This document shows, piece by piece, positions 6,335-56,049 of a stretch of DNA of 64,000 nt (its first letter is position 1; each line of letters starts with the position of its first letter). Source of the DNA: an uncultured bacterium (GTDB taxonomy: Bacteria; Actinomycetota; Geothermincolia; Geothermincolales; Geothermincolaceae); the NCBI GenBank assembly GCA_963765625.1, contig CAVXXD010000013.1, positions 103,394 through 167,393 of the forward strand. Direction: 5' to 3'. Made by a program: the position numbers and the translations under genes. The notes under the pieces are model-generated. The model was not told where the DNA came from, ran no database searches, and worked only from the letters and a program-made list of their open reading frames with translations.

Positions 6335-6450
6335 AGAACGCTTCCCTGGAGGCCCCATCCCCGCTCTATTAAAGGGATTGTGCGTCATAACGCTGTATAA
6401 TATCTTGAAACATCCTTGAAAAGAACCGAGTCTGGAAGACCCATACGAAT

Positions 6451-31079: not shown

Positions 31080-31195
31080 CGCAAAGCCCCCTTCATCGGT
31101 TTCCTTATGTCTAATAGTACCCCGGAAAGCTGGATTTTACTTCCATCAAGAAAAAAAAGAAAGAATGGTCGACAGTTGCTCGAGCGGGCGGGAGA

Positions 31196-32625: not shown

Positions 32626-32813
32626 GCTTGTTGCCGCAGTGATATTCTACACTCTAAAGAATTCCTTGACCAGCGATTAATCAAGGGAAATCCCTTGTCG
32701 GAAGAGTAGGGGTGTTTACTTGAAATGAACCCGTGGTAAAATATGTTAACGGCTTTCAATATCAGGGCTTCAAGGAATCCAAACCGGGGCTGCCATAGTT
32801 AGGGAGGGTTGCA

Positions 32814-34187
32814 ATGAAGCGCAGGGTATTATCCATCTCATCCGTCGTTGTCTTCGCGTTGCTGCTGTCGTCCGTATTGGGTTCCGTCACCGTGGCGGAA
32901 ACGCCGGCCACGACGGCCGACGGCGAGAGGCTTCTTTCGGACATCTTCACCGCCCACACCGTGGACGGAGTAGACCTGAAGGTCTGGCACTACCGTCCCG
33001 AGGTCACCAGCTCACTCAATGAAGGAGCTCAGCCCATCATCATGATGCCCGGCATGGCCTGCAACTTCGACTTCTTCGACACCCACACCAAGGAAGGAGT
33101 CACCTGCTCCACCACTCTCCCGGCCGATCTGGCGGATTGGGCCGTAGGCGACACCTACCTGCAGAACGAGGACCCCATGCGCTACTACAGCCTGGCTTAC
33201 TATCTCTGGTCCGAAGGCTATGACGTCTGGATGGCCAACTACCGCGGTCAAGGCCGGGACGAGGTCCGCAGCGGCGGTGCCACCGGTTACTCCATCGACG
33301 AACTGGCCATCTACGACATGCCGGCCATCATCAGCATGGTCAGGGAACTTTCGGGCTTAAAGCCCATCTGGACCGGTCACAGCATGGGCGGCATGATGTC
33401 CTACTACTACCTGCAGGGCTGCCGGTTCGAGGACATGGCCGACCACGACTCCAGCGTCATCTCGGACCCGGCCCTGTGCGCCGAGCGCAACAATGGCGAC
33501 GGACCGCAGGCCCTGAAAGCCCTTTTCACCCTGGACAGCCCGGACAGCCCCTGCGGCGAAGTGCCATGGATACTGGGCGCGCTGGTCTATTCGGTCTGTT
33601 ACGTGCCCTGGTACCTGGACATCAGGCCCCTCACCGCCACCTTCGGCGGCATTCTCGGCGACCCCGTCCTCGGCCTGGAGAGTTTCTACCGCCAGGTATG
33701 GGCCGACTTCGGGCTGCCGGACCTCTTCTTCCCGCTCAACATCCTCCTCAGCTTCAATCCGCCAAATCTCAACGGCGACCTCGCTTCGTATTTCATCACT
33801 AACGGCGCCGACGGATTCAGCAACCGCGCCGTGATCCAGCTGATGGACGGATGCAACAACCGGGTAATGCGCGAGGACTACCGCAACGGCACCTTCAACT
33901 GGTGGCGCTGGTACCCGCCCATCCCGGCCGAAGGTGACGGTTATTACTACTACTCCAGCAACATGGACAAGATCAGCCTGCCGACGTTTATCCTCATCGA
34001 CGGCACGCGCGACATCACCAACCCCGAGGACGTCAAGGCGGTCTACGACAAGAAAACCCGCGACCCGCTGGACGACTACTACCTGGTCTCCAACTCCGCC
34101 CACGCCGACATCGTCCAGGGCTTGACCGCCCCGACGGACCTGTACCCCGCGATCGGCGCCTGGCTGGACACCTTGCCGGCCGACTGA
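32814..34187 (+). CDS. secreted alpha/beta hydrolase (lipase/esterase-like)
   Basis: Signal peptide; nucleophile elbow GHSMGG (GxSxG). Confidence 0.6.
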   Translation: MKRRVLSISSVVVFALLLSSVLGSVTVAETPATTADGERLLSDIFTAHTVDGVDLKVWHYRPEVTSSLNEGAQPIIMMPGMACNFDFFDTHTKEGVTCSTTLPADLADWAVGDTYLQNEDPMRYYSLAYYLWSEGYDVWMANYRGQGRDEVRSGGATGYSIDELAIYDMPAIISMVRELSGLKPIWTGHSMGGMMSYYYLQGCRFEDMADHDSSVISDPALCAERNNGDGPQALKALFTLDSPDSPCGEVPWILGALVYSVCYVPWYLDIRPLTATFGGILGDPVLGLESFYRQVWADFGLPDLFFPLNILLSFNPPNLNGDLASYFITNGADGFSNRAVIQLMDGCNNRVMREDYRNGTFNWWRWYPPIPAEGDGYYYYSSNMDKISLPTFILIDGTRDITNPEDVKAVYDKKTRDPLDDYYLVSNSAHADIVQGLTAPTDLYPAIGAWLDTLPAD

Positions 34188-34210
34188 ACGAAAATTGGGG
34201 TCAGATGTCC
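34186..34210. repeat. degenerate half-unit of the same family (AAAATTGGGGTCAGATGTCC)
   Basis: Between convergent stops of the alpha/beta hydrolase and the ABC-2 permease. Confidence 0.35.
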
Positions 34211-34962
34211 TTGCGGTTGAAGATGTACACGGCGCCGGAGGCAAACGCCACAATGAGGACCGTGGCGGAGGCGAGGGACGGCAGCGCCTCACCGAAGCCG
34301 CTGGTCCGGCAGATGATCCCGGAGGATACCTCCACCAGATAGCCGGGCCCGTATTTCTTCAACGGCTCGAACAGCCCGGGGATCACGAACACCGAGAACG
34401 TGCTGATCAGGGCAAGCCCCGCCGCCGCCCCGCTCGACCTGACCAGTGTGCTGTAGAAGGTGGTCAGCGACAACGCCACCAGCAGGAAGGCGCTGGTACA
34501 AACGATAGACAGCGGCACTCCGGCCGGCGAGAAATAATCGAAGATTATGACGGAATAAATGTAAAACACCGCGGTCCCAAGGATGTTGCCGCCAACGATG
34601 ACCATGGCGTTGGCGGTGTACCGGGAGAGCAGGTAGTCCCGTCTGGAGATGGGCTTGGTGAGCATCATGGCGGCCACCCGGCGCGACTTGTCGCCGGCGA
34701 CGGTCCCCATGGCGAAGATGATCACCAGCAGCAGCGCCATCTGGCTGATGAAGCTCATGTACTGCAGGGCGGCGTCGATCACGCTGGCTTCCCCGGTTAT
34801 GGTCATGGTAAGGCTGCCGGTATCGGTGACGGGCATCATCTCGGGCAGCATCTTCATGGCCAGGGGAGCGGTCATCCCGAAGACCCCGAAGATGATCACC
34901 GCTATCAGCACGCGGTAGGTCTTGAGCTGCTCGCGAAGGTCCCTGGCTAGCAACCTGCTCAC
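34201..34962 (-). CDS. ABC-2 type transporter permease
   Basis: Six TM helices; ABC-2 family organisation directly downstream of an ABC ATPase. Confidence 0.6.
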   Translation of the reverse strand: MSRLLARDLREQLKTYRVLIAVIIFGVFGMTAPLAMKMLPEMMPVTDTGSLTMTITGEASVIDAALQYMSFISQMALLLVIIFAMGTVAGDKSRRVAAMMLTKPISRRDYLLSRYTANAMVIVGGNILGTAVFYIYSVIIFDYFSPAGVPLSIVCTSAFLLVALSLTTFYSTLVRSSGAAAGLALISTFSVFVIPGLFEPLKKYGPGYLVEVSSGIICRTSGFGEALPSLASATVLIVAFASGAVYIFNRKDI

Positions 34963-35904
34963 GGTTTCGCCTCCCCGCTTCTCCCGAGCTCGTCCAGGGC
35001 GCGCATGAACACCTCTTCCAGGTCCGGCTGGTCCATGCGCAGGTTCCTGATGCCCAGGCCGAGCGCCACGGCGGCGGCGGGTACATCCATGGCGGCCGCC
35101 CGGGCGTCACGGGACACGGCCTCGATGCCGGAATCCTTCAAGTCCGCCCTCTCGCACCAGCCGAAACCCCTGATCCGGTCGAAGAAGCGCCCCGGGATCT
35201 CCCTCCACTTCCACCCACAGGGTGTTGGAATCGTAGCGTCGCTTGAGCCCGGCGATGGAATCGTCGGCGATGAGGCGGCCCCTGTCGATCATCAGCACCC
35301 GGTCGCAGACCGTTTCCACGTCCGCCAGCAGGTGGGTGGAGAAGATGATGGTCGTCCTGCCCTTGAGCCCGTCGATGTAGTCGAGGAGCTGCCGGCGCCC
35401 GATGGGGTCCAGTCCGGAGGTGGGCTCGTCCATCACCAGGATGGAGGGCCCGCCGGTCATGGCGTGGGCCAGGGCCAGCCGCTGCCTCTCCCCCTTCGAG
35501 AAACCCCCGGCTTTGCGGCTCTTCAACTTCTCCAGCCCGAAAAGCCTGATGGACTCCTCCGCCTTCTCGCGGGCTTCCTTCTTATCTTTAAAGAAGAACC
35601 CACCGAGGAACTCGAGGTGCGCAAGCGGCGTCACCCAGCTGGAGAAAGCCGGATCGTCCGGCATGTATCCCAGGTTCGAGGGCGCGCCGTTTCCGGGCCC
35701 CCCCGCCGCACCACCGAAGAGGGTGATCTCTCCCTCCGTGGGACGCGAGAGGCCGGCCATGATCTTCATAGTGGTGGTCTTGCCGGCGCCGTTAGGGCCG
35801 ACGAAGCCGACGATCTCGCCTTCGTCAACCGTGAAGGAAAGATCCTTTACGGCAGTGAACTTACCATATCGCTTTCGGAGGTTCGCGCACTCAATAATCG
35901 CCAT
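34959..35904 (-). CDS. ABC transporter ATP-binding protein, one frameshift near 35200
   Basis: Walker A GPNGAGKTT, signature FSKGERQRL, Walker B ILVMDEPT. The C-terminal about 60 aa are in the 34959 frame. Confidence 0.7.
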
Positions 35905-36106
35905 CGGAGCCGGTATCCTCCTCGCGGCCCCAGATGAGATAGGCGATCGGGCCGATCAGGTTGAAGATCAGGATCACTACAGCCCACACGATCTTGTTGC
36001 CCCTGACCCGCTCCCGCTTCAACAGGTCCACCAGGGCCACGACCATCAGCACCAGCTCCAGTATTATCAGTGGAGCGAGTAGAAGAAGCATCTGCCAGAT
36101 CTCCAT
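35891..36106 (-). CDS. PLD nuclease N-terminal (PLDc_N) domain small membrane protein
   Basis: LLLLAPLIILELVLMVVALVDLL...WAVVILIFNLIGPIAYLIWGR matches PLDc_N, commonly paired with ABC-2 transporters; start at 36106 after GGGGAGG. Confidence 0.55.
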   Translation of the reverse strand: MEIWQMLLLLAPLIILELVLMVVALVDLLKRERVRGNKIVWAVVILIFNLIGPIAYLIWGREEDTGSDGDY

Positions 36107-36220
36107 GGAGTCCTCCCCACTCGGCACGGATACCGTTTCCGCCTTCTTCTAAATCATACCATCGTTGAGCGGCTGAGGACTTTGCCGGCAGCGGGAGAAA
36201 AAGAAAGCCGGGAATTTCCC

Positions 36221-36451
36221 TCAGGCCAGAGCCTTGATCTTCTCGGCCACAACCTTCCCGCTTCCGTCGCCGGAGAAGAATTTGACCGATTTCTCGATGT
36301 AGACAGCCAGTTCAGGAAGCTGCGAGGCGCAAATGCTGTCCACGGTGGCCCCGATCAGTTCGCAATTCTTCTTCAGGGTGGCCTGGGCGATGAACTCCCC
36401 TAAGGCCTCCGAAAGGATAGCCTCGATGTCTTTTGCAAGCTTGTTAGCCAT
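36221..36451 (-). CDS. hypothetical small protein (76 aa)
   Basis: Intact ORF upstream of the HAMP gene; no recognised motif. Confidence 0.3.
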   Translation of the reverse strand: MANKLAKDIEAILSEALGEFIAQATLKKNCELIGATVDSICASQLPELAVYIEKSVKFFSGDGSGKVVAEKIKALA

Positions 36452-36457
36452 GGTCTT

Positions 36458-37315
36458 CTACTCCCCCAGTTCGTCGTCCATCTGGCTCAGGACCTTCTGG
36501 CCGCTGCGTAGCAGGCCCTGGATGGGCGCGAACGAGCTTTTGGGGTCGTACTCGAGCTCCCCCTCGAAGGTGCCGGTGACGATGCCCTCCGCCGCTTCGT
36601 TGAGGTTGTTGACGGGCTTCATGACATACTTGTTGACCAGGAACCGCAGGCCCAGGGTGGTCAGCAGGGCGAAGAGGATGATGGCGACGATCTCCACGAT
36701 GGTGAGCCTCACCAGGAGGTCGCTCCGCTGTTTCTCCAGGGTGTCCTCGATGGTCTTGAGCTCGGCGGTGCGGTCTACGATGAAGTTGGCGTAGATATCC
36801 TGCATGCCCAGCAGACTTAGGTTCACGGGAAAGTAGGCGGAGATGAAGTACCCTTCTTTGTCGCCCAGCTGGTCCAGGGTGACGTACCCGCTCTCGGGGA
36901 CCTCCGTGGACAGGGTGGCGGGGTCAAGTTCCAGCCCCTTGGCCGTGCCGGAGGCTATCAGTTCCCCGCCCTGGATCAACCCGATGTACTCGATGGGATA
37001 GAAGTTTATGGCTATGGCCGGCCCCATCTCGTTGAACGCCTGGTAATCCCCCCTCATAATGTTGTTCATCAGCTCGGGGTTGAAGTATTTCAACAGAGCC
37101 GTATTGGTGCTCATCCCGGTGATGCTGTCACCCATCTCCTTCATGTTCTGCACGGCCTGGTCGATCATCATCTGCTTGTTCTGTTCGATGTTGTCGCTGG
37201 TGGTGACGGCCACATCCACCAGGAAGTAGGAGATTACCGATATGAATAATAGCAGCGTGAAAAAGGTCGCCCAGAATATCAGTTTCTTCATCTCGCTCCC
37301 CAGCTTGCGTTTCAT
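36458..37315 (-). CDS. membrane sensor protein with single periplasmic domain + C-terminal HAMP, no output domain
   Basis: Start at MKRKLGSEMKKLIFW (37315). Ends with HAMP-like ...EGELEYDPKSSFAPIQGLL, the same C-terminal signature as 29388-31079. Confidence 0.5.
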   Translation of the reverse strand: MKRKLGSEMKKLIFWATFFTLLLFISVISYFLVDVAVTTSDNIEQNKQMMIDQAVQNMKEMGDSITGMSTNTALLKYFNPELMNNIMRGDYQAFNEMGPAIAINFYPIEYIGLIQGGELIASGTAKGLELDPATLSTEVPESGYVTLDQLGDKEGYFISAYFPVNLSLLGMQDIYANFIVDRTAELKTIEDTLEKQRSDLLVRLTIVEIVAIILFALLTTLGLRFLVNKYVMKPVNNLNEAAEGIVTGTFEGELEYDPKSSFAPIQGLLRSGQKVLSQMDDELGE

Positions 37316-37571
37316 CGCAGTCTCCTTTCCGATCTCTCCCGATGTTATACCTACCGACCAGTCGGTCAATTTAATATATATAGGATGATAGGCCGATAAC
37401 CGGTGTTCCCTGGTTCTGACACCAGAGATGTTACTTTTTGCTTGGCATGCTGCTTTATCTATATTGCCCTTGCTCGCGCCACGCCAGAAGTAATGGGTTC
37501 TTGCCGCCGGCTTGCTTAACGTTATAATTAGTCGGATGTACTCAGTCGAAGCAACAGGAGGTAGAAGAAGT

Positions 37572-38450
37572 ATGTCGTTATCGGACAAGTGTATTATCAC
37601 GGCCGCCCTGGCCGGAGCCACCACCATGAAGACCGCGAACCCGGCCGTCCCCTACACCACGGAGGAGTTCGTAGAAGAAGCTTACCGGTGTTACAACGCC
37701 GGGGCTTCCATCGTCCACATCCACGCGCGCGACATCGAAACCGGCCTCCCCACTTCCGACCTGGAGCAGCTGGGGACCATCGTCAAAGGCATCCATGAAA
37801 AGTGCCCCATCGTCATCAACCTCTCCACCGCCATCGGCATAGGCGTTCCCCCGGAGGAGCGCATCCGCGTGGTCGAGAGGTTCAAGCCGGAGATGTCCTC
37901 GCTCAACACCAACTCCATGAACTTCGCCCAGGCCGACTGGAAGAAGCACGTGGTGACCAGCGAGAGTGTCTTCACCAACACCTTCGCCATGCTGGTGGAG
38001 TTCGCCGGCAAGATGCGCGACGCCGGCACCAAGCCCGAGATGGAGGTCTACGACCTGGGCGGCATGTACAACGTCCTCTTCGTGTCCGAGCAGGAAGGCC
38101 TGTTCGTCAAGCCCCTCCACTTCCAGTTCGTCTGGGGCATACTGGGCGGCTGCCCCCTGGACATGGGCATCATGAAGCGCTACATGGAACTGATTCCCGC
38201 CGGCTCCACCTGGTCGAGCTGCGGCGTCGGACCGGCCCAGTTCCGCAGCGCCTTCCACGCCGCGGTCGAGGGCGGCCACATCCGCTGCGGCCTGGAGGAC
38301 AACACCAACATCACCAAGGGCGTAAAGGCCGCGGGTTCCTACGAGCAGGTCGAGAAGTGCGCCCGCATCGCCGAGCTGGCCGACCGCGAAGTCGCCACCC
38401 CGGACGAGGCCCGCGAGATCCTCGGCCTCAAGGGCGCCCCCGAGATTTAA
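37572..38450 (+). CDS. kce: 3-keto-5-aminohexanoate cleavage enzyme family (BKACE/DUF849)
   Basis: IITAALAGATT...PYTTEE...GASIVHIHARD...LEDN signature of the BKACE TIM-barrel family; AGGAGG RBS. Confidence 0.7.
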   Translation: MSLSDKCIITAALAGATTMKTANPAVPYTTEEFVEEAYRCYNAGASIVHIHARDIETGLPTSDLEQLGTIVKGIHEKCPIVINLSTAIGIGVPPEERIRVVERFKPEMSSLNTNSMNFAQADWKKHVVTSESVFTNTFAMLVEFAGKMRDAGTKPEMEVYDLGGMYNVLFVSEQEGLFVKPLHFQFVWGILGGCPLDMGIMKRYMELIPAGSTWSSCGVGPAQFRSAFHAAVEGGHIRCGLEDNTNITKGVKAAGSYEQVEKCARIAELADREVATPDEAREILGLKGAPEI

Positions 38451-38471
38451 GAGTAATCACTACATAAGCAA

Positions 38472-38501
38472 GCGGCCCCCGCCGGGGCCGCTTTTCTTTT
38501 T
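38472..38501 (+). terminator. rho-independent terminator
   Basis: GCGGCCCC-CGCC-GGGGCCGC stem then TTTTCTTTTT, 22 nt after the kce stop. Confidence 0.75.
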
Positions 38502-38552
38502 GACTGAACCGGGTCCCTTCCACCTCAGCTGCTAGCTTGGTCTTGCTGGCCT

Positions 38553-39020
38553 TCACTCTCTTCTTCTGAGGATATGGATACCAAAGTGGAAGCCTAAGGC
38601 GATTATGGAGAATAGAGCAAGGGCGACTATTTCGGCCTCTAAGAGTGTAATTACTGCATCCTTTGCGGAGACATCATAAATGCTTAAGAGTAAGACCATT
38701 AAACCAACAATAAACACCTGTGATGAAATAAAGATGATTGCCAGGAGCCGTTTACTCTGTTTCTTTCTGCCTTCAATATTGATCGATTCTTCTCTTCTTG
38801 TAGCGGGAACCCCTCTCTTCAATATAAGGACAATCAATGCAACAGCACTAGCCGCTGCAACAAGGCTGAATATCTCAGAACCAAGAGTCCAGCGAAGGAC
38901 TATCGAGACAAGTATTATGATTTCGAGTGTATAAAATGCTATTTTGACCGACTTCTCTTGCGCCCCGTCTTGCTTCATCGATTTCCCCTGTTTCATTATT
39001 GAGACAACGGTTTCCATCAT
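38553..39020 (-). CDS. hypothetical membrane protein
   Basis: Four predicted TM helices; lower GC than surroundings. Confidence 0.35.
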   Translation of the reverse strand: MMETVVSIMKQGKSMKQDGAQEKSVKIAFYTLEIIILVSIVLRWTLGSEIFSLVAAASAVALIVLILKRGVPATRREESINIEGRKKQSKRLLAIIFISSQVFIVGLMVLLLSIYDVSAKDAVITLLEAEIVALALFSIIALGFHFGIHILRRRE

Positions 39021-39315
39021 TATAGCGTTAGCAAAGCATAGTTCCGGTAATCCGGCTGCCGGGCTTAAACAGGATCAGCCTGTCGCTATCAGCGTCCTTC
39101 TTCTGTATAGCCGCAGCGAGGCGAGATAGAAGACGACCAGAATACTGAGAGTCCACGCCAGCGCTGCCCACGCGCTGTCGCCAGCCGTGCCACTCGTAAG
39201 GAGCGAACCATGATCATGTATTCCATATATCAAGACCCTCTAAGTTATAATTATTTTCGGCCTGGGGACCCTGCTTACGGATTGAATACGAATCGGAAAG
39301 GAAGGGGTTCGGATC

Positions 39316-40821
39316 ATGGGTAAGAAAATCGCCATCATAGGAGCGGGCATCGCTGGCCTGTCGGCGGGCTGCTACCTCCAGATGAACGGGTACGAAACCG
39401 AGATCTTCGAACTGCACGACAAGCCGGGGGGTATCTGCACTTCGTGGACCCGCAAGGGTTATACGTTCGATGGATGCATACACTGGCTGGTAGGGACGAA
39501 AAACGGGTCCAGCTTCAACCAGGTATGGCGCGAGCTCGGCGCGCTCTCGGGAGTGCGTTGCATCAATCATGGCGAATTCACCAGGTTTGAAAATGCCGAC
39601 GGCAAGCAGCTGGTGCTCTACAACGATATCAACAGGCTGGAGAGGCACCTCAAGGAACTGTCCCCCTCTGACGCCGCAATGATCGAGGGCTTCTGCAACG
39701 ACATCCGGAAGCTGGCGAAAATCAAGATGCCGGCCGGTGAGCCCACCAACACCAGAGAGATGCTCGCGTTCTTGAAAATCCTTCCCGGCATGATGAAGCT
39801 GGTGGCCATGTTCTTGAAGAAGCGCAAGATGACCATGGAAAAGTTTCGTCAGGGCTTCAAGGACCCGTTCCTGCGCCAGTCCTTCGGCCAGCTGATGGAG
39901 ACACCGGAATTCCCCCTGATGTTCATGCTCCTCAACCTGGCCTGGATCAGCATTGGCGATGCCGGTTATCCCGAGGGAGGGTCTCTCGAGTTCGCCAGGT
40001 CTATCGAGCACAAATACCTGAGCCTGGGCGGGAAGATGTCCTACAAGTCCCGGGTGGCGGAGATTACCGTGGAAAACAGCCGAGTCACGGGTTTGAAGCT
40101 GGAGGACGGCAGCCTGCGCCCCGCTGACGTGGTCATCTCCGCGGCCGACGGGCGTTCCACCATCTTCGAGATGCTCGGCGGAAGGTACATAAACGACAAG
40201 ATCAAGGAGAGGTATCGTACCTGGAAGCTCTACGACCCGCTGGTGCAGGTATCTATCGGGGTAAAGAGGGACCTCTCGGGCGAGCCTCACTCGCTCCGCT
40301 TTCCATTGGAGAAGCCCATCGTCGTGGGCGGCGTGGAGCACTCCGGCTTGAGCTACAGCCACTACTGCTTCGATCCCACCCTCACGCCCGCGGGCAAGTC
40401 CGCGGTAGTTTCTTATCTTTCCACGGATTACGACTACTGGGAGAAGCTCTATGAGGATCGGGAGGCTTACAAGGCCGAGAAGAAGCGCATCGGCGAAGAG
40501 GTGGTCGAGGCACTCAACCGGCGCTGGCCTGGGTTTAAAGATGACGTCGAGGTCGTCGACGTGGCCTCGCCGATGACTTACGTCCGCTATACCGCCAACT
40601 GGCGCGGGAGCTACGAGGGCTGGCTCCTGAACGCAAAGAACAGCCGGTACATGATGATCGGTCTGGAGAAGAACCTCCCGGGACTCGAGGGCTTCTACCT
40701 GATCGGGCAGTGGATGCTCCCCGGCGGCGGCCTGCCGCCCGCGGCCGTACACGCTCGGGAAGTCGCCGCGTTGATCTGCAAGAAGGACGGCAAAAAGTTC
40801 ACCGCCACCAGCACCGTCTGA
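39316..40821 (+). CDS. FAD-dependent oxidoreductase, phytoene desaturase (CrtI) family
   Basis: KIAIIGAGIAGLSAGCYLQMNGYETEIFELHDKPGGICTSW dinucleotide-binding motif; about 500 aa CrtI-like. Confidence 0.7.
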   Translation: MGKKIAIIGAGIAGLSAGCYLQMNGYETEIFELHDKPGGICTSWTRKGYTFDGCIHWLVGTKNGSSFNQVWRELGALSGVRCINHGEFTRFENADGKQLVLYNDINRLERHLKELSPSDAAMIEGFCNDIRKLAKIKMPAGEPTNTREMLAFLKILPGMMKLVAMFLKKRKMTMEKFRQGFKDPFLRQSFGQLMETPEFPLMFMLLNLAWISIGDAGYPEGGSLEFARSIEHKYLSLGGKMSYKSRVAEITVENSRVTGLKLEDGSLRPADVVISAADGRSTIFEMLGGRYINDKIKERYRTWKLYDPLVQVSIGVKRDLSGEPHSLRFPLEKPIVVGGVEHSGLSYSHYCFDPTLTPAGKSAVVSYLSTDYDYWEKLYEDREAYKAEKKRIGEEVVEALNRRWPGFKDDVEVVDVASPMTYVRYTANWRGSYEGWLLNAKNSRYMMIGLEKNLPGLEGFYLIGQWMLPGGGLPPAAVHAREVAALICKKDGKKFTATSTV

Positions 40822-41028
40822 CCCATGGTATTCTATAACGAACATTCTTCATATGCCCTTCTCCTTACCAACATCATACCGTCAAGCAAGGCGACGTGAC
40901 CCTCCTGCCGTCGTGCGGCGGGAATGGGAGATGGCCTTGGCCCCGATCTTGACCAGCTTGAGCTGGATGCTCCGCAGCGACCAGGCGGACATTGAAAAAC
41001 GGGACTTAAACGTACAAGCGGCCCTACG

Positions 41029-41055
41029 GGGCCGCTTTGCCTTGGGACATGACCC
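41029..41055. terminator. terminator-like hairpin between convergent CrtI-like (+) and RLP (-) genes
   Basis: GCGGCCC-TACG-GGGCCGC followed by TTTGCCTTG. Confidence 0.45.
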
Positions 41056-41175
41056 GGGTCCCCTCCACGAGACCCGGCCGTGAATTAAACCCAAGAAAGA
41101 AGGGTCCGTCGTACAAAACATCGGGTATGGCCCGGTTTTGGTAGGCGGACCCTTCTTTCTTTCTTTTGAATTACG

Positions 41176-42478
41176 CTACGCTTTGTTCTCGTAGAAGACG
41201 CCCGTCCAGATGCCCATGGCCACGGCCAGCTCCTGGTGGTCCTTGGCGTACTCCTCCAGCGTTATGCCCTGCATGGTGGCGTCGATGGCCTGACGGAAGG
41301 CTTTAGCCCCCGCCGCCGGTCCCATGGGGTGGGCGTGCACGCCGCCGCCCGAGCCGATCATGATGTCCGGCCCCAGGTCGGCCACGCAGGTGGGTACCAT
41401 CTGCGGGGTGATGCCGCCCGAGGGCATGGGCATGGTCGGCTTGAGGTCGTGCATGGGATAGGTCATGGCGTCGGCACACGGCAGGAAGCGTTCTTTCAAG
41501 AAGGGGGCCTTGCCGTAGGGGGCGGGAAATACCACCACGTCCGCCCCGGCCAGACGGGGCAGCTTGCCCAGCACCAGGTGGGAGGACATTCCCGAGTAAT
41601 GCGATTCGTACAACGCCCCGGCACAGTCCATGTGAGCGAGGATGGGCACGTTAACCTCGTCGTCCTCGGCCAGCGCCTGCAGGGCCGGCAGGCCCACCGC
41701 CAGGTAGTTGACCATGATGGCGTTGGCGCCGGCGGCCACGGCGCGCCGGGCGGTATCGAACATCTTGGGCAGGTTGTCGGAGACGTTGACCGTATACAGA
41801 CGTGCGCTCGCCCGTCTCCTCGAACACCCGCTTCTCCAGGGCCATGTACGCCTTGACCCTGTCCTCCACCCGGTTGAACATCATGTCCGCGATAAGCTCG
41901 TCGTCCTTGACCACGTCGCAGCCGCCGCGAGCCGCCTCGTAGAAGAGGTCGGCGCCGATCTGGCAGGGGTATCCGGTGCAGGGCTTGGTCATGTTGTTGA
42001 GCAGGGGGCGGCCCTCCACTCCCAGCGCCTTGTAGATACCCTCGATGCCGAACTTGGGCCCGACGAAGCCATCGGTGAACACCTTGGGGAAGTAGATGTC
42101 CAGCAGCTTGATCTTGCCGCCCATGGAGATGTTGCCCAGCACCGCGGTGAGCAGCATGGGGATCTGGTTTTCGATGTTGCGGAAAGGGAAGGCGATCTGG
42201 ATAACGTAAGAACGCTCGTCGACCTCCTTGGGCACCTCGAACTCGTACTGGGGCACCTCGTAGACGCCGATGACCTTGGCCACGTGGGCCGCCCGCACCT
42301 CGGCGGTCTCACCCGGCACCGGGGTCCAGGTGCCGGTGGACTGCTCCACCGCCAGGAAGGGGCCGATGTAGTAGGCCAGCATCTCCCGGGGCATGGCCCC
42401 GTAATAGGTGGCCACGATGTGGTCCCCGTAGTCGATGCCCTCGGGCAGGGCCCGCGGTTCCGCCGCGAAGTTCTTCAT
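41176..42478 (-). CDS. RuBisCO large-subunit-like protein (form IV RLP or divergent form III), one frameshift near 41775
   Basis: EQSTGTWTPVP (RuBisCO ESSTGTW), TKP (K175), GGCDVVKDDE (GGLDFTKDDE with K201), MPMPSGGI (PVASGGIH). The HR pair is changed to HM(D), suggesting an RLP. Frames 41651-42478 and 41176-41763 join after a 1-nt indel. Confidence 0.6.
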
Positions 42479-42506
42479 CTCACTTACCTCCTTGTTTTTC
42501 AGCCGG

Positions 42507-44042
42507 TCAGGCCGGCTCGTTGATCTTCCTGTAGATGCCTGAAAGCTTCCGGTAGGACTTCCGGAAGGCGTCGTACAACTCGTCGTAAATCTGCCGGTTG
42601 CCCCGGTCCGGCTCGAAGGTGCGGCGCACCTTGACCACTTCTTTTAAATCCTTGTAATCGCGGTAGATATTCAGGGCCACCGCCACGGCCAGAGCGCAGC
42701 CCACCGCGCCCGCCTCCTGGGCGTCCTCCACCGCCTCGATGCGGTGGCCGGTGACGTCGGCGAAGATCTGCATCCAGGCGTCGGAGCGGGCGCCGCCGCC
42801 GATGGCCCGCACGGTGGGGCAGGGGTAGCCGGCGCTGCCCACCGCTTCCAGCAGCCAGCGGCTGTTCATGGCCACGCCCTCGTAGACAGCGCGCAGCATG
42901 TCCTCGCGGGTGTGCTCCAGACTGACGTTGAGAAAGGCGCCGCGCAGGGTGGTGTCGGTTACCGGGGAGCGCTCGCCGAACATCCACGGGGTAAAGATGA
43001 GCTTGCGCGAGCCCGCCGGCACTTGATCGATCACCTTGTCCAGAACGGCGAAGATCTCCATCTCCTTCTCGGCCTGGTCCCACTCCTCCTTGCGGCCCAG
43101 CTGCTCGGCGAACCACTTGAGGCAGGCGCCGGCCGTCTCCGTCTCCCCAATCATTAAAAAAGAAGAAGGGTCGGCCGAGGCGATGGAGGCGATGCCGTTC
43201 TTGACCAAGCTCTTGGGTTTGGCCACGCTGATGCAGAGCCAGCCCGAGGTGCCGATGCTGATGTGGGCGTCACCCTCGCCCAGGGCCCCCGAACCGGTGG
43301 CGGCGGCGGGAACGTCGCCCATGCCCCCGATCACCGGCAAGCCGGGGTGCAGGCCCATGGCCTTAGCCGCGTCGTCGTTGAGCACCCCCACCACTTCGAT
43401 GGACTTCTTCACCGGGGGGAGCTTGTCCAGGGGGATGCGCAATACCCGGCTGAGCAGGTGGGACCAGTCGCGGGTCTTGTTGTCCAGCAGGCCGGTGGCG
43501 GCGGCGTTGGTCTGGTCGATGATGATGTTGCCGGTGGAGCGGTAGACCAGGTAGCCGTTGACGTCGAGGATGGCTTTCGCCCTTTCGTAGAACTGCGGCT
43601 CTTCTTCTTTTAACCACATGATCTTGCAGATGACGTCTTTCCCGGAAGGGACGGCGCCGGCTATACGCGCCACTATCTTCTCCCCGCCCATGTGCTTGAC
43701 CAGGCGGCAGGCCTGTTCGTCGGCGCGGGAGTCGATCCAGATGATGGCCGGGCGCAGGGGCAGGCCCTTGTCGTCGATGGGCAGCACCCCCAGCATCTGG
43801 GTGGCGTAGCCGATGCCCAGCACCTCCCGGGGGTCGATCCCGGTTTCCTCCACCAGGCGGCGGGTGGACTCGGTCACCGCTCTCCACCAGTCCTCCGGGT
43901 CCTGCTCGGCCCAGGCGGGACGGCAGTAGTCGACGCAGTAGGGCTCGAAGCTGTAAGAGATTATCTTGCCCTCCAGGTCGGTGAGGACGGCCTTGCTGCC
44001 GCCCGTCCCCACGTCGTGGCTGATGATGTACTTACCCCCCAT
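42507..44042 (-). CDS. FGGY-family carbohydrate kinase (xylulokinase-like)
   Basis: HDVGTGGSKAVL N-terminal motif and FGGY C-terminal domain; 511 aa. Confidence 0.75.
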   Translation of the reverse strand: MGGKYIISHDVGTGGSKAVLTDLEGKIISYSFEPYCVDYCRPAWAEQDPEDWWRAVTESTRRLVEETGIDPREVLGIGYATQMLGVLPIDDKGLPLRPAIIWIDSRADEQACRLVKHMGGEKIVARIAGAVPSGKDVICKIMWLKEEEPQFYERAKAILDVNGYLVYRSTGNIIIDQTNAAATGLLDNKTRDWSHLLSRVLRIPLDKLPPVKKSIEVVGVLNDDAAKAMGLHPGLPVIGGMGDVPAAATGSGALGEGDAHISIGTSGWLCISVAKPKSLVKNGIASIASADPSSFLMIGETETAGACLKWFAEQLGRKEEWDQAEKEMEIFAVLDKVIDQVPAGSRKLIFTPWMFGERSPVTDTTLRGAFLNVSLEHTREDMLRAVYEGVAMNSRWLLEAVGSAGYPCPTVRAIGGGARSDAWMQIFADVTGHRIEAVEDAQEAGAVGCALAVAVALNIYRDYKDLKEVVKVRRTFEPDRGNRQIYDELYDAFRKSYRKLSGIYRKINEPA

Positions 44043-44045
44043 GCA

Positions 44046-44672
44046 TTACCCCCTCATACCCTGGTTGGACGCCAACAGGAACTGCAGACTTATCTCCATG
44101 CCCCGGCGGAGGTCGAAGGTTTCCGGGTCCTCCAGCCACTGTATCTCCATCCCCTCCACCAGCCCCAGCAGGATGCAGGCAAGGTAGTAGGAGTCCACCG
44201 GCGGCAACAGTTCTTCCTTGATGCCCTGGCTGATGATCTTCTCGAGTTCTTTCTTGGTCCGCTCGACGTAGCCAAGCAGCTGTTCGACGAACTCGGGCGA
44301 GAAAGCTTCGCGTTCCTCGGCCCGCATCTTCCAGGAGAGTTTGCAGTAATCGCGTTCGCGGTAGTAAAGGTCGATCATCCCTTCGCCCATCCAGGTGAGC
44401 TTTTCCAGCGCGGTCCCCTGGCGGCTGGATATCTCTTCCACCAGCCGCAGGATCTCCTCGTGCATCTCGCGGATGAGGGAGAAGTAGAGTTCTTCCTTGG
44501 ATTTCCAGTACCAGTAGAGGGTGCCCTTGCCGAAGCCGGCCTCCATGGCGATCTCGGCCATGGTGGCGCGGTGGTATCCCTTGGCGGAGAATATCTTGAG
44601 CGCCGCCTGCTTGAATTCCTGCTCTCTCTGGTCCTTCACGGGGTTGTTCCTGATACCCAGTGATTTGGCCAT
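44046..44672 (-). CDS. TetR/AcrR family transcriptional regulator
   Basis: N-terminal HTH (GYHRATMAEIAMEAGFGKGTLYWYW). First gene of the TetR-FGGY-RLP operon. Confidence 0.8.
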   Translation of the reverse strand: MAKSLGIRNNPVKDQREQEFKQAALKIFSAKGYHRATMAEIAMEAGFGKGTLYWYWKSKEELYFSLIREMHEEILRLVEEISSRQGTALEKLTWMGEGMIDLYYRERDYCKLSWKMRAEEREAFSPEFVEQLLGYVERTKKELEKIISQGIKEELLPPVDSYYLACILLGLVEGMEIQWLEDPETFDLRRGMEISLQFLLASNQGMRG

Positions 44673-44820
44673 GAACTGCTCCTTCGGGCTTAGACCGACC
44701 GGTTGGTCTTAGAATATCGCAGCCCGGAAGTGTTGTCAATCGCTTATGTTGTTAGAATCACTTTGGAGAAGAAATGCGGTTTCCAGTAATTACGGGAGCA
44801 GAGAGAAGAAGGTAGGCGAC

Positions 44821-45576
44821 ATGAAGGGCATAGGCCCGGACAGCCGGAAGGATAGCCTGTCCAACCGCGCCTCCCCCCTGGCCTGGGCGTGCACTGAGGC
44901 CATTTCGGCCGGGCTGATCCTGGGGTATGGCGCCCTGGCTAACCGCGTTATCCCCGGAGCATTGTACATCCCGGCCAACCTGACCGCTGCCGCTGCCGCC
45001 ATATTTCTTTTCAGCCGCCTGGGCGTGACCATGGCAGACATGGGGCTGGAGCGCAGCCGTCTGGCAAACGGACTCAAGGTAGGATTGATCTCGGCTATCC
45101 CCATCGCCGCCGTAATCGCCGCCGGGGTAGCTATCCCCTGGAGCCGTGAGTATTTTCAAGACAGCAACATCATCGGGATGAGTACCGGCAAGGCTTTGTA
45201 CGAGATGCTGGTGCGCATACCCATCGGAACCGCCTTGTCCGAGGAACTGCTCTTCCGTGGGGCGCTTCTCGGGCTCCTTCTCCAGCGCCACCGGCCCTGG
45301 GTGGCGGTGTCCTTGAGCTCAGTAGTCTTCGGGTTCTGGCATATCCTCCCGACTCTGCAGTCTCTTACCACCAACACGGCGGCATCCTCCGCCGTGGGAA
45401 CCGGGTCGGCGGCAAAGGCCGGCACGGTGGCGGGAGTGGTGGCGATAACCGCCATAGCCGGTGCGGCCTTTTCCTGGCTGCGGCTGCGCTCCGGAAGCAT
45501 CGCCGCGCCCTGGGTCGCCCACACCGCCCTTAATTCACTCTCTTTTCTCGGCGGCCGGATCGGGGCGAACTTATAG
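44821..45576 (+). CDS. CPBP family intramembrane glutamic endopeptidase (CAAX protease-like)
   Basis: SEELLFRG (EExxxR) and FGFWH (FxxxH) motifs within TM helices. Confidence 0.7.
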   Translation: MKGIGPDSRKDSLSNRASPLAWACTEAISAGLILGYGALANRVIPGALYIPANLTAAAAAIFLFSRLGVTMADMGLERSRLANGLKVGLISAIPIAAVIAAGVAIPWSREYFQDSNIIGMSTGKALYEMLVRIPIGTALSEELLFRGALLGLLLQRHRPWVAVSLSSVVFGFWHILPTLQSLTTNTAASSAVGTGSAAKAGTVAGVVAITAIAGAAFSWLRLRSGSIAAPWVAHTALNSLSFLGGRIGANL

Positions 45577-50544: not shown

Positions 50545-52014
50545 ATGTCTGAGAACGATTTTGACTGCGTAGTGATCGGCGGCGGGGTCGGGGGGATGTG
50601 CGCGGCGGCCATGATGGCCCACTACGGCTACAGGACCCTGGTGGCCGAGAAGAGGCCGCGGTTGGGCGGGCGGTTTTCCACCATGGAGATCGACGGCTTC
50701 AAGTGCCCGACCGGCGCGGCCATCGTCACCCGCGGTACCGAACTCGAGGAGACCTTCAAGGTGACCGGCGCGGATTTCGACATCGTCAAGTGCTCGACGG
50801 TCGCCTGGCAGATAGGCGACAAAACCTATGACGTGACCGGCAAAGGCATGTTCAAGACCCTGGCCCTGCTGCTCACCCTGCCACCCCGGCTCTACAAGTT
50901 CGCCTTCATGACCATGACCAACGTCTTCCGCTCCATGGGCGAGATGCTCTTCTTCCGCTTCCTCAACCTCTTTCGCCCCGAGGAGAAGTGGACCTTTCGC
51001 CGCAAGGACAAAGGTTCCCTGACCAGCCGGGAATGGACCATGAAGTACACCGACGACCCGGTGGTGATCCAAGCTTCGCACGCCTTCCTCTCCGCCCTGT
51101 TCAACGCCATCAACGACTTCGAGTGCCCGGCTTCCGACGTCTTCGCCTTTGCCGCCAGCATGGCTAACCCCTTCAAGGCCCATACCTTCGGCTACGCCCG
51201 GCGCGGCAACGTCGAGCTGATGGATTCCCTGGGCCGCGTGGTCGAGCGAGAAGGCGGCGAGGTATTGAGGTCCACCGAGGTCAAGGAGATAAAGATGGCC
51301 AACGGCAGGGTCACCGGCGTGGTGCTCTCCGGCCCCGAAGGTGAGCGGGAGGTCTCCGCCAGGACGGTGATCAGCAACGCCGGGCCCAGCGCTACCATGG
51401 AGATGGTCGGCAAGGAGAACTACCCGCGGGACTACGTGCGCAAGCTCAACCAGACCCTGCGGCCCGCCCCCATCGTCATGTGTCACGTGGCCAGCGATGT
51501 CCCCCTGCTGGACCACAAGGGCCTGGTGGTCACCTCCGGTACCAGGACCATCGTCGGCGCCGTCCAGCTGACCCTGCACACCACCGACGTAGCCCCGCCC
51601 GGCCAGCACCTCCTGTGGACCTTCGCCACCCCCTCCTGCTGCACCCGCAAGCTCGACGTCGAGCTGGAGAGGAACAACAACCTGGAAGATCTCGAGACCG
51701 CCTTTCCTCTTTATAAAGAACACGGCCGCCTGCTGGAGATGGTCATCAAGGACATCGACGACGACCTGCCCTGCCTGCGCACCTGGCCCGGCTACGACAT
51801 GCCGGTGACCACCCCCATCCCCAACCTCTTCAACGTCGGCGACGGGGTCAAGGACTTCGGCTGGACGGGCTGTCCGGCCTGCGCCAAGAGCGCCTGGAAG
51901 GTGGTGGACAAGATCCGCCGCGACTTCCCGGCCCCTGCCGCCGGCACCGGCGGTTCCATCGCGGCCGGCAGTACCGCATACGCCGGCATTTCCGTTACGG
52001 CCAGCAGAGTATGA
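50545..52014 (+). CDS. FAD-dependent oxidoreductase, CrtI/amine-oxidase superfamily
   Basis: DCVVIGGGVGGMCAAAMMAHYGYRTLVAEKRPRLGGR dinucleotide-binding motif. Confidence 0.65.
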   Translation: MSENDFDCVVIGGGVGGMCAAAMMAHYGYRTLVAEKRPRLGGRFSTMEIDGFKCPTGAAIVTRGTELEETFKVTGADFDIVKCSTVAWQIGDKTYDVTGKGMFKTLALLLTLPPRLYKFAFMTMTNVFRSMGEMLFFRFLNLFRPEEKWTFRRKDKGSLTSREWTMKYTDDPVVIQASHAFLSALFNAINDFECPASDVFAFAASMANPFKAHTFGYARRGNVELMDSLGRVVEREGGEVLRSTEVKEIKMANGRVTGVVLSGPEGEREVSARTVISNAGPSATMEMVGKENYPRDYVRKLNQTLRPAPIVMCHVASDVPLLDHKGLVVTSGTRTIVGAVQLTLHTTDVAPPGQHLLWTFATPSCCTRKLDVELERNNNLEDLETAFPLYKEHGRLLEMVIKDIDDDLPCLRTWPGYDMPVTTPIPNLFNVGDGVKDFGWTGCPACAKSAWKVVDKIRRDFPAPAAGTGGSIAAGSTAYAGISVTASRV

Positions 52015-52030
52015 GGAAGGGAGGCTTCAC

Positions 52031-53371
52031 ATGGATAAGGCATATGACGTGATCGTGGTCGGGGCTGGGGTCGCGGGCCTGGGCGTGGGCGGGATACTCG
52101 CCCGCGCCGGGAAGAAGGTTCTGGTGCTGGAGAAGAACTCCAACGTGGGCGGCCGGGCCGCTACTTTTACCAGGGACGGCTGGGTGCGGAGCATCGGCCA
52201 GCATGCCGCCCTGAAAGATCAGCGATACGACGCGCTTCTTGGCAAACTGGAGGTCGATTGCCCCCGCGAGTATTTCGGTGACCTGCAGATGTACCACGAG
52301 GGCGCCTTCAAGAGCGTCTTCGAGATAATCCCCACCCTGGTCGCCCGGCTCAGCCCGGAAGATATGGCCAGGATAGGGGAACAGGTACTCAATCCCGACA
52401 TCGATATGGACGCCCTGGACGACATCGCCGCCGACGCCTGGCTGGCGGACATCGTCACCGACGAGGTGATGGTCAACTTCATGCGCATGGCGGCCATCAT
52501 CATGACCACCATCCCCTTTCTGGGAGAGATGTCCGCCAGCGTCCTGAAGGAATCGATGATGATCATCACCCGCACCATGGAGACCTGGCTGGCCGCCAAC
52601 GGCATGGGCGAGTTCATGGAAGCCATGGCCGCCGACATCCGCGCCCACGGCGGGGAGGTCAGCACCGGCACCCCGGTGGAGCGCATCCTCATCCGTGACG
52701 GCAAGGTGGCGGGGGTACTAGTGGGTGAGAGTGTCGCGGAGGAGATCGAGGGCGAGTTCGGTGGTGTAACCCGGATCGAGGCACCGGTGGTGATATCTGC
52801 CATCCCCGTCTGGGAGATCTTCAAGATCATCCCGGAGGAGGAGTTCCCGGAGGGCTTCGTGGAGCAGGCCTGGAAGGTGGAGAAGCGCACCGCCAACCTC
52901 GGCCTCACCGCCGGTCTGAAGAAGTCGGTCTACGAGGGCCGCGGGCTGATCATGGTAGACTATCCCAGCGTCGGGTACCCGGGCAGCATCTTCATGCCCA
53001 CCAATATCTGCCCCAAACTGGCCCCAGAGGGATGCCAGCTTTTCGAAGCCTCCATCATCTGCGACTACGACGTCCGCAAGGACCCGGAGAAACTCCACCA
53101 CATGATGGACATGCTCTACCGGGACCTGGCGGAGTGGTTCCCCGGCTGGGACAGCGAGGCACTATGGATAAAGAACTACTTCCACTACGAGGAGCCCAAG
53201 CGCACCCCGGGCCGCGCCGGCAAGAACCGCCCCGGTTACACCGTGGCCGGGATCGACGGGTTGTACCTCTGCGGGGACTCCATCGGCTCGCGCGCCCTGC
53301 CGGGGCTGGAGTGCGCCGCGGACTCCGCCATCAACTGCGCGGAGGCGGTCCTGGGCGGCTCCGCTCAATAG
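52031..53371 (+). CDS. FAD-dependent oxidoreductase, CrtI/amine-oxidase superfamily (paralog of the upstream gene)
   Basis: DVIVVGAGVAGLGVGGILARAGKKVLVLEKNSNVGGR motif; start 17 nt after the previous stop. Confidence 0.65.
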   Translation: MDKAYDVIVVGAGVAGLGVGGILARAGKKVLVLEKNSNVGGRAATFTRDGWVRSIGQHAALKDQRYDALLGKLEVDCPREYFGDLQMYHEGAFKSVFEIIPTLVARLSPEDMARIGEQVLNPDIDMDALDDIAADAWLADIVTDEVMVNFMRMAAIIMTTIPFLGEMSASVLKESMMIITRTMETWLAANGMGEFMEAMAADIRAHGGEVSTGTPVERILIRDGKVAGVLVGESVAEEIEGEFGGVTRIEAPVVISAIPVWEIFKIIPEEEFPEGFVEQAWKVEKRTANLGLTAGLKKSVYEGRGLIMVDYPSVGYPGSIFMPTNICPKLAPEGCQLFEASIICDYDVRKDPEKLHHMMDMLYRDLAEWFPGWDSEALWIKNYFHYEEPKRTPGRAGKNRPGYTVAGIDGLYLCGDSIGSRALPGLECAADSAINCAEAVLGGSAQ

Positions 53372-54480: not shown

Positions 54481-54555
54481 GCCGGTGTAGCTCAAGGGTA
54501 GAGCCACCGCCTTGTAAGCGGTAGGTTGGAGGTTCGATTCCTCTCACCGGCTCCA
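54481..54555 (+). tRNA. tRNA-Thr (anticodon UGU), CCA encoded
   Basis: Cloverleaf: acceptor GCCGGTG/CACCGGC, D-arm GCTC-AAGGGTA-GAGC, anticodon stem ACCGC/GCGGT with loop CUUGUAA (UGU), T-arm GGAGG-TTCGATT-CCTCT, discriminator T, then CCA. Confidence 0.8.
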
Positions 54556-55881: not shown

Positions 55882-56049
55882 GGCTACGCTCGAAACTCCT
55901 TTCGTTCTCGCCCCTCCCGGCCGATATTCAATTAAGTTAGTAGTCATTAACCTGACTAGTATATGTTAACACAAATTTTCGGTCAGGCAACTGATCTCAC
56001 TTTACCTGGTCGACCAAATGATTATCGGGGGTTGGCGGAAGCGGAGCGA

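Follow-up and report, generated by a model that had tools for sequence, protein, structure and literature searches.

What does a RuBisCO-like protein (RLP) do when the gene beside it encodes a sugar kinase of the FGGY family? The question is raised by an operon in a 64,000-nucleotide stretch of DNA, here called the window, from an uncultured bacterium of the Geothermincolaceae (contig CAVXXD010000013.1). Three co-directional genes on the minus strand encode a TetR-family repressor, an FGGY-family kinase and a homolog of the RuBisCO large subunit. A preliminary description, made from the letters of the window, had reported these genes with a spacing of 3 to 28 nt. Open reading frames (ORFs) confirm the coordinates and gaps, and Pfam matches confirm the identity of all three products. 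The operon is best explained as one copy, presumably under TetR control, of a metabolic module of two enzymes that is widespread and uncharacterised. Its layout is as follows.

44739 down to 41176, minus strand: promoter-like site, palindrome, tetR, FGGY kinase gene and RLP gene, in this order read 5' to 3'
44046..44672, minus strand: tetR, TetR-family repressor gene, 208 aa (ORF and PF00440 TetR_N)
42507..44042, minus strand: FGGY-family carbohydrate kinase gene, 511 aa (PF00370 FGGY_N and PF02782 FGGY_C)
41176..42478, minus strand: RLP gene, form IV, 433 aa after repair (RuBisCO_large_N and RuBisCO_large, split ORFs)

The tetR stop is separated from the kinase start by 3 nt, and the kinase stop from the RLP start by 28 nt. 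The interval 41183-44725, which holds the three genes and their leader, is the only block that can be aligned to the closest genome (locus L009), at 88% nucleotide identity. The flanks are unalignable.

Conservation of the kinase-RLP pair

The RLP belongs to a large family. When one genome for each GTDB species was scanned with a sequence pattern, at least 573 relatives were confirmed among 600 candidate stretches, which places the family in at least 573 species genomes, nearly all from uncultured hosts. Among the matches listed, these hosts are Geothermincolia and other Actinomycetota, Dehalococcoidia, Anaerolineae, Caldisericota, and one metagenome-assembled genome (MAG) labelled "Deltaproteobacteria". 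Gene neighbourhoods were compared in 83 non-redundant loci, 80 from the pattern scan and the rest from earlier look-ups.

An ortholog of the kinase lies upstream of the RLP, on the same strand, in 78 of the 81 informative loci, which span several phyla. The remaining five of the 83 loci comprise two with too little upstream flank and three that truly lack the kinase. In one of these three, the RLP is an additional copy, and the pair is present elsewhere in the same MAG. The Dehalococcoidia MAG JAFGHL01 carries two RLP copies of the family (L031 and L066), one with an FGGY kinase and one without. The gap between kinase and RLP has a median of 69 nt, and a single gene is inserted between them in seven loci.

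Across the loci, the identities of the kinase and of the RLP to the window proteins vary together (Spearman 0.61, p = 1e-8), as expected if the two are inherited together. Because the genes adjoin in so many informative loci across phyla, chance in one genome does not account for the FGGY partner, and the two genes make up a conserved module.

The repressor does not belong to this core. Among the loci analysed, TetR orthologs (60-82% identity) lie upstream of the kinase in L001 and L009-L021 only, so that TetR is specific to the Geothermincolia-type lineage. Dehalococcoidia loci have a divergent MarR gene, and other lineages have no recognisable regulator. The window protein matches TetR_N with 62 bits (E=4.8e-17) and is below the cut-off of all NCBIfam equivalogs.

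Fold and active site of the RLP

After repair of a frameshift, the window RLP matches both domains of the RuBisCO large subunit, PF02788 with 35 bits (cut-off 20.7) and PF00016 with 163 bits (cut-off 30.1). An AlphaFold model of an ortholog with 94% identity has a pTM of 0.83. With this model, Foldseek finds RLP and RuBisCO structures at TM 0.81-0.93, and MtnW structures at 0.85-0.93. Judged by the model, the RLP has the RuBisCO large-subunit fold, with an N-terminal alpha+beta domain and a C-terminal TIM-barrel.

Active-site positions are numbered here as in spinach RbcL, a numbering that agreed at 21 of 21 reference positions; 83 family members were compared. The retained residues are E60, T65, W66, N123, K175, K201, D203, E204, H294, K334, S379, G380, G381, G403 and G404. 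The substituted ones are T173M, K177C, R295M, H298A, H327V and L335A. The 83 members agree at all 21 positions, save for three that have Thr or Ser at position 298.

The residues of the Mg2+/carbamate centre, K175, K201, D203 and E204, are thus present in the window RLP and in 83/83 members, and K201 is predicted to be carbamylated. The SGGI and GGG loops are also kept in the window RLP. The preliminary description had noted the four residues and the GGI loop, and the active-site map agrees. Its list had overlooked E60, T65, W66, N123 and K334, which are retained as well.

Ribulose bisphosphate is bound in RuBisCO by its first phosphate at G381, G403, G404 and T65 (the P1 site) and by its second at R295, H298 and H327 (the P2 site). 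Since the P1 site is kept and the P2 site is replaced by hydrophobic residues, the family should bind a mono-phosphate, with the far end of the substrate in a hydrophobic pocket. The residues E60, N123, K334 and H294 serve the carboxylation and hydration steps that follow enolisation in RuBisCO.

The preliminary description had regarded the protein as a form IV RLP rather than a carboxylase, on the grounds that the HR pair was lost. The pair is only half lost, as R295 is replaced by Met but H294 is kept. The assignment outside the RuBisCO models stands, although the argument from the HR pair is weaker than it was put. With H294, K334, E60 and N123 all retained, carboxylase-type or decarboxylase-type chemistry on a mono-phosphate is possible.

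Relationship to known families

Among NCBIfam models, the highest score is that of the MtnW model NF007095, with 367 bits (cut-off 409); a second MtnW model, TIGR03332, gives 316 (cut-off 513.6). The form III model TIGR03326 gives 254 bits (cut-off 497.45), and two further RuBisCO models, NF003252 and NF010002, give 243 and 127 (cut-offs 438 and 489). The model for OiaX, NF042437, gives 184 bits (cut-off 700). Bona fide RuBisCO of forms I-III differs from the RLP in its second phosphate site, in K177 and in T173 (Ile in form III), as well as by these scores. Form III representatives in the same alignment have the RHH residues and K177. Position 123 is Asn in 83/83 members; it is Lys in GkMtnW (Lys98), in the B. 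cereus RLP and in all 17 MtnW-like representatives.

A search of 1.84 billion cluster representatives returned a continuum of RLP clusters. In a neighbour-joining (NJ) tree of 108 sequences, the family core forms a clade with bootstrap 92, and all sequences with MtnW or RuBisCO signatures fall outside it; the deeper nodes are poorly supported. The nearest neighbours in the tree are other uncharacterised clusters with the E60/N123/M173-K175-C177/K334 pattern. By sequence, then, the RLP family lies outside each of the characterised clades compared, MtnW/YkrW, OiaX and form III. On the alignment and tree, the RLP neither sits inside a characterised clade with an FGGY context nor keeps all carboxylase residues, and the preliminary description survives on both points. 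Its claim that an FGGY kinase under a TetR regulator matches no known RLP context holds for the RLP and its conserved kinase. It does not hold for TetR as a mark of the system, since TetR is confined to one lineage.

The MtnW (YkrW) enzymes of Bacillus and Geobacillus (PDB 2OEK, 2ZVI and 4NAS) have the same fold and the closest sequences, at 36-38% identity and TM 0.85-0.93. Both MtnW and the window family keep K175, K201 (carbamylated in MtnW, predicted to be so here), D203, E204, H294 and the P1 site, and in both the P2 site has become hydrophobic. Both should therefore take a mono-phosphate with a non-polar tail. The two differ in that Lys98 of MtnW is Asn in the window family, and that E60 and K334 (the loop-6 Lys) are kept here and lost in MtnW. 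The partner is also different, an FGGY kinase and not MtnK, MtnA, MtnB or MtnX.

The RLP of Rhodospirillum rubrum (DeepYkr) is the 5-methylthioribulose-1-phosphate 1,3-isomerase of the MTA-isoprenoid shunt (PMC6302742). It provides a precedent for the type of reaction favoured for the window family, in which the carbonyl is moved along a pentulose mono-phosphate through enediolates. A related structure, 3QFW, scores 107 bits to the window RLP. No cupin methylsulfurylase occurs among the recurrent neighbours and no MTA-phosphorylase context was seen; the FGGY partner is unique to the window family.

Form III RuBisCO, as in Thermococcus kodakarensis (1GEH/3A12), has in common with the window family all of the retained residues listed above, from E60 to G403/404, and its structural similarity is almost equal to that of MtnW. 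The window family lacks R295, H298, H327, K177 and the form III residue at 173. It also lacks the AMP-phosphorylase/R15P-isomerase or PRK context.

OiaX, the 3-oxo-isoapionate-4-phosphate decarboxylase of the apiose pathway, follows the same logic, with a kinase first and an RLP acting on the phosphorylated product. The two systems are separated by the low OiaX score and by the kinase, which is FGGY here (78 loci) and DUF1537 there, and no acid-sugar dehydrogenase context was seen. The RLP of the Hakuba actinobacterium was considered as well; it is a different RLP, with a DeoR/epimerase context.

The FGGY kinase

Both FGGY domains are recognised in the window kinase, PF00370 with 191 bits and PF02782 with 114 bits. 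The translation contains the motifs DVGTGGSK, GMGD and GGGARS, which are of the DxGT, GD and GGGA types. The two FGGY domains are common to XylB, LsrK, GntK and GlpK, of which XylB is the nearest. The XylB models TIGR01312 and NF011601 give 350 bits (cut-off 380.25) and 229 bits (cut-off 912), and the best PDB match is E. coli XylB (2ITM, 215 bits). On these scores the kinase is xylulokinase-like, yet outside the XylB equivalog. It also differs from XylB in its partner, an RLP and not a xylose isomerase.

One idea was that the pair acts on AI-2, with an LsrK-like kinase and the RLP as an analogue of LsrG. The LsrK model gives 202 bits against 350 for XylB. The idea was set aside for want of specific support, and AI-2 was kept as a possible substrate only.

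Third genes and sister clades

Clustering of the ORFs of the 83 loci yields three recurrent neighbours only: the FGGY kinase, a saccharopine-dehydrogenase (SDH)-like oxidoreductase and a class-III aminotransferase (AT)-like protein. The SDH-like gene (PF03435 and PF16653) is found in 36 of the loci; in Chloroflexota it closely follows the RLP, and in Actinomycetota L012-L021 it separates tetR from the kinase. The AT-like gene, of 485 aa, is found in 23 loci and resembles glutamate-1-semialdehyde (GSA) aminomutase, below the cut-offs for that enzyme. No locus has both, 36 have the SDH-like gene, 23 the AT-like gene and 24 neither (Fisher p = 1e-7), and each set spans several phyla.

SDH-like and class-III AT families act on aldehyde/ketone-amine pairs. 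Given this chemistry and the mutual exclusivity, the two genes are read as alternatives for one step. Their closest PDB relatives are saccharopine and carboxyspermidine dehydrogenases (about 70 bits) for the SDH-like protein and GSA aminomutases (about 229 bits) for the AT-like protein, which are too distant for a substrate to be named.

The sub-lineage of the window (window, L001, L009-L011 and L017) has neither gene in the operon. Homologs of the accessory SDH-like, aminotransferase, aldolase and alcohol dehydrogenase (ADH) genes were looked for in the 64-kb window, and none were found. Other clusters flanking the loci, identified by eye (HNH, CBS, SurE, hydrolases, serpin and acyl-CoA dehydrogenase), are lineage-specific and incoherent, and were rejected.

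At locus L082 (4348-10273), in the "Deltaproteobacteria" MAG, the AT-like gene lies between kinase and RLP, and a phosphoglycerate kinase (PGK)-like gene follows the RLP. The latter was recognised by eye and is the sole hint of 3-phosphoglycerate as a product.

Sister RLP clusters, at about 50% identity, also adjoin enzymes that make ketose phosphates. Their loci are arranged as follows.

L090/L091: GntR, Fe-ADH, RLP, Zn-ADH, FGGY and sugar-type ABC transporter genes
L089: RLP, FGGY, class-II aldolase, Rrf2, class-III aminotransferase and Liv-type ABC transporter
L094, 106-5631: RLP P0129 (47% identity), flanked by GlpA/B/C-like dehydrogenase genes in place of the kinase
L092: SorC-type sugar regulator

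The GlpA/B/C-like polyol-phosphate dehydrogenase genes at L094 would be a second way to supply a ketose phosphate to an RLP. The sister-clade kinases are 31-33% identical to the window kinase, and the sister aminotransferase is 28% identical over part of the protein; neither is orthologous. In view of the low identity of the kinases, the clades do not have a single orthologous operon in common, but rather the pairing of an RLP with some source of ketose phosphate. The preliminary description had suggested an uncharacterised pentulose- or tetrulose-phosphate pathway. The sister clades lend this suggestion indirect support and it is plausible, short of proof.

A frameshift in the window RLP

The RLP gene of the window occupies the 1303 nt that had been assigned to it, but it is not a single ORF. 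It consists of two ORFs in different frames, 41651-42478 and 41176-41763. The preliminary description had suspected a frameshift at about 41775, and DNA alignments to relatives place it precisely.

41800..41801, minus strand: single-base insertion that breaks the RLP frame (DNA alignments to six relatives)

At this site the window reads ACG-T-CTG and the relatives read ACC-CTG. All six aligned relatives (L009, L001, L010, L011, L012 and L017) have one base fewer, and removal of the T at 41800 restores a protein of 433 aa. The site is neither a homopolymer run nor a slippery motif. A programmed frameshift was rejected, as the slippery motif is absent and all relatives are in frame.

It may be that the RLP is dead in this organism, and that the operon no longer runs its pathway and is a pseudogene remnant. 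The insertion splits the gene, is missing from the six relatives and lies outside any homopolymer. Likewise, the assembly does not seem prone to frameshifts. Ten further pairs of adjacent ORFs in the window were suspected to be split genes, and all proved to be separate complete genes; the lesion in the RLP is therefore isolated. This argues against a generally error-prone assembly, while a single error is neither confirmed nor ruled out by it. Apart from the extra base there is no sign of decay. Neither half contains a stop, GC3 is high in each (0.79 and 0.86), and after repair the protein shares 94% identity with an intact ortholog of 433 aa. It keeps all invariant columns of an alignment of 18 family sequences, among them the motif EETGE[RH]TLYTVNVSD, which spans the lesion. 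The rest of the operon (kinase, tetR, promoter and operator) is intact, and a single assembly or sequencing indel would look identical. The insertion is either a very recent inactivation or a sequence or assembly error, and a dead gene is given a little less than an even chance. Such a loss would concern the window copy alone and not the nature of the module.

Proposed function and its alternatives

In the proposed pathway, the FGGY kinase would phosphorylate a small ketose-type compound once. This compound could be a pentulose or tetrulose, or else a derivative of the deoxy, thio or amino type. The RLP would bind the mono-phosphate via the retained P1 site, and the keto/hydroxy group would be coordinated on the Mg2+ held by carbamylated K201, D203 and E204. 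Abstraction of a proton would give an enediolate, as in RuBisCO, and re-protonation would give an isomer or epimer that enters central metabolism. The best specific guess is that the carbonyl migrates as it does with the R. rubrum RLP, which interconverts the skeletons of pentulose 1-phosphate and pentulose 5-phosphate. As invariant Met, Ala, Val, Met and Cys stand where RuBisCO has its second phosphate site, the far end of the substrate probably carries no charge or is non-polar. Many genomes have a third enzyme in the module, either SDH-like or AT-like, which may convert an aldehyde or ketone to an amine ahead of the two reactions or following them.

All RLPs characterised so far proceed via an enediolate (PMC10176493). 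A kinase that makes a mono-phosphorylated ketose, followed by an RLP that enolises and re-protonates it to an isomer or epimer, is put at about an even chance of being the right description.

Several points weigh against this proposal. Xylulokinases phosphorylate the carbon far from the carbonyl, and the P1 site calls for a phosphate adjacent to the carbonyl that reacts; a XylB-like kinase thus fits poorly, unless the carbonyl is shifted by the RLP itself. The residues K334, E60, N123 and H294 are kept though a simple isomerase would not need them, which may mean chemistry at a carbon-carbon bond. The family loci are usually without transporters, aldolases or other pathway genes, and the statistic for the exclusivity of the SDH-like and AT-like genes ignores phylogenetic non-independence. 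The type of reaction is deduced from residues and neighbours alone. Finally, the RLP gene of the window, as sequenced, has no capacity for a full-length protein.

The retained residues suggest another model, in which the RLP performs RuBisCO-type carbon-carbon chemistry on a mono-phosphate. In a forward variant, it would carboxylate and cleave the product of the kinase, for instance pentulose 1-phosphate to 3-phosphoglycerate and a C3 acid. In a reverse variant, the reaction would be decarboxylating or hydrolytic, as in the RLPs of the apiose pathway. E60, N123, K334 and H294 are invariant in 83/83 members alongside K175, K201, D203 and E204, and the pure enolase MtnW has lost the first three. 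RLPs that decarboxylate or oxygenate do exist (PMC10176493), and the PGK-like gene follows the RLP at L082. However, the family has other residues in place of K177 and T173, retains nothing of the P2 site, and the form III score of 254 bits is far under its cut-off of 497. No recurrent neighbour among the 83 loci handles CO2 or carboxylic acids, and the PGK-like gene is a single case. The same triad also occurs in many uncharacterised RLP clusters, so it may be ancestral. This model is considered unlikely. Its most novel form, a RuBisCO-type enzyme for a mono-phosphate that uses E60, N123, K334 and H294 to make or break a carbon-carbon bond, such as a pentulose-1-phosphate carboxylase fed by the FGGY kinase, is considered distinctly improbable.

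The family could also represent a divergent MtnW, the DK-MTP-1-P enolase, in a variant methionine salvage pathway where the FGGY kinase takes the place of MtnK. MtnW is the closest characterised relative, with the best NCBIfam match and the best structural matches in the PDB (275 bits), and its distal pocket is hydrophobic in the same manner. An aminotransferase neighbour would suit the final step from keto acid to methionine. Automatic source annotations of the homologs read "DK-MTP-1-P enolase" or "ribulose 1,5-bisphosphate carboxylase". The catalytic base of MtnW, Lys98, is nevertheless Asn in every member. Imker and colleagues reportedly found in 2007 that Lys98 is essential and that K98A is inactive. 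The residue pattern therefore contradicts the enolase label. The RLP is also below both MtnW cut-offs and falls in a separate clade of the NJ tree. The recurrent neighbours are limited to FGGY, SDH-like and AT genes, although no dedicated search for mtnA/B/X/D was made. Most of the hosts are strict anaerobes, and the MtnD step, which depends on O2, would presumably not run in them. A variant of methionine salvage is thus very unlikely, and the kinase-fed isomerase or epimerase is preferred.

Regulation

In the Geothermincolia-type lineage, TetR would repress tetR-fggy-rlp at a palindromic operator until a ligand, presumably the substrate or its phosphate, arrives. The elements on which this proposal is based are the following, together with a hairpin at the other end of the operon.

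44711..44739, minus strand: sigma-70-like promoter, TTGACA, 17-nt spacer, TATTCT (consensus scan)
44689..44712: palindromic operator CTAAGACCAACCGGTCGGTCTAAG (minus-strand reading), 22-24 bp (inverted-repeat search)
41079..41175, minus strand: long imperfect hairpin directly 3' of the RLP stop, between the convergent RLP and amine-oxidase genes (inverted repeat and RNA fold)

The promoter, a consensus match only, agrees at 10 of 12 consensus positions and is the sole match in 40700-44900. Most TetR-bearing relatives have a TTGAC-type -35 element and an AT-rich -10 element at the equivalent position. The palindrome abuts or overlaps the -10 element and the presumed transcription start, and is followed by a GAAGGAG ribosome-binding site and then ATG. 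Its core, AGAC[CT]GACCGGT[TC]GGTCT, occurs once in the window. The core recurs upstream of tetR in 13 of 14 TetR-bearing loci, at the same position and with diverged flanks. From this footprint the palindrome is presumed to be the TetR operator of an autoregulated operon.

The hairpin has arms of 41 nt with 76% complementarity and a folding energy of -42.8 kcal/mol (z = -3.9), and none of 200 shuffles folds as well. It is probably a terminator, though a simple terminator scan gave no call. An Rfam search of the operon matched no RNA element.

A different arrangement is seen in 13 related loci (L003, L032, L038, L052 and about 9 Dehalococcoidia), where radical-SAM and MarR genes, divergent from the kinase, precede it at a distance of roughly 1.5-2.8 kb from the RLP start. 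These neighbours may reflect plain synteny or a link to by-products of S-adenosylmethionine.

Surroundings of the operon

The preliminary description had placed a BKACE gene and a CrtI-like oxidoreductase gene just upstream of the operon. Both exist, the BKACE gene at 37512/37572-38450 and the flavin amine-oxidase/CrtI-like gene at 39316-40821. They lie not upstream but past the 3' end of the RLP gene, convergent with it. Neither is conserved beside the module, and both were rejected as members of the pathway.

These genes lie in the stretch 32646-41176. The interval from the RLP to the alpha/beta-hydrolase/GGDEF genes measures about 7-8.5 kb in the window and less than 2 kb in the nearest relatives (L009 9296-11059; L001 7312-7647). 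Because of this extra DNA, the stretch beside the RLP is regarded as a variable insert. The extra DNA contains an ABC-2 transporter, two proteins without a family match, BKACE and the amine oxidase.

Outside the operon, the window holds nothing further that bears on the pathway. Four PF01593 flavin amine-oxidase/phytoene-desaturase-like paralogs are found, all on the plus strand: 6409-8697, 39316-40821, 50545-52014 and 51809-53371. The last two are in tandem, with an ORF overlap of about 200 nt, and the first has an N-terminal extension of about 230 aa without a Pfam match. DUF5719 occurs in three large proteins (12522-14624, 22369-24027 and 60736-62139), combined with Flg_new_2, DUF4397 and ASRT-like domains; they are a probable repeated family of cell-surface proteins. 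The sole Rfam match in the window is a tRNA at 54481-54552 on the plus strand (69.8 bits), which adjoins a radical-SAM/SPASM maturase-type gene at 54649-55965 on the minus strand. Four sizeable minus-strand ORFs have coding-like GC3 and no Pfam match: 36458-37627, 29388-31136, 4082-5200 and 1424-2299. The first of these has no NCBIfam match either, and overlaps the annotated start region of BKACE on the opposite strand.

Significance

A full-text search of the literature found no paper that pairs an RLP with an FGGY or any other sugar kinase; an earlier mention in subscription papers is possible. Form IV genes of Chloroflexota are mentioned in metagenomic papers, but no explanation is offered there. 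A review from 2023 recognises four types of RLP reaction (enolase, 1,3-isomerase, decarboxylase/transcarboxylase and oxygenase), none of them coupled to an FGGY kinase (PMC10176493). The family described here is regarded as a new functional subfamily within the RuBisCO superfamily, well delimited and with a kinase partner of its own.

Most of the diversity of form IV is without a known function. The family is useful in this respect, as it occurs in so many species genomes, has an invariant and distinctive active site in which more of the carboxylase machinery survives than in MtnW, and comes with a dedicated kinase. Since this kinase should make the substrate of the RLP, the function is directly testable. 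If the RLP did make or break carbon-carbon bonds, the superfamily would gain a new reaction, for the handling of CO2 or for cleavage, that is widespread among anaerobes of the subsurface. Correction of the annotation would reach genomes of Dehalococcoidia, Anaerolineae, Geothermincolia and Caldisericota. Solving the function would add a fifth RLP function or pathway, and would show which residues predate carboxylation.

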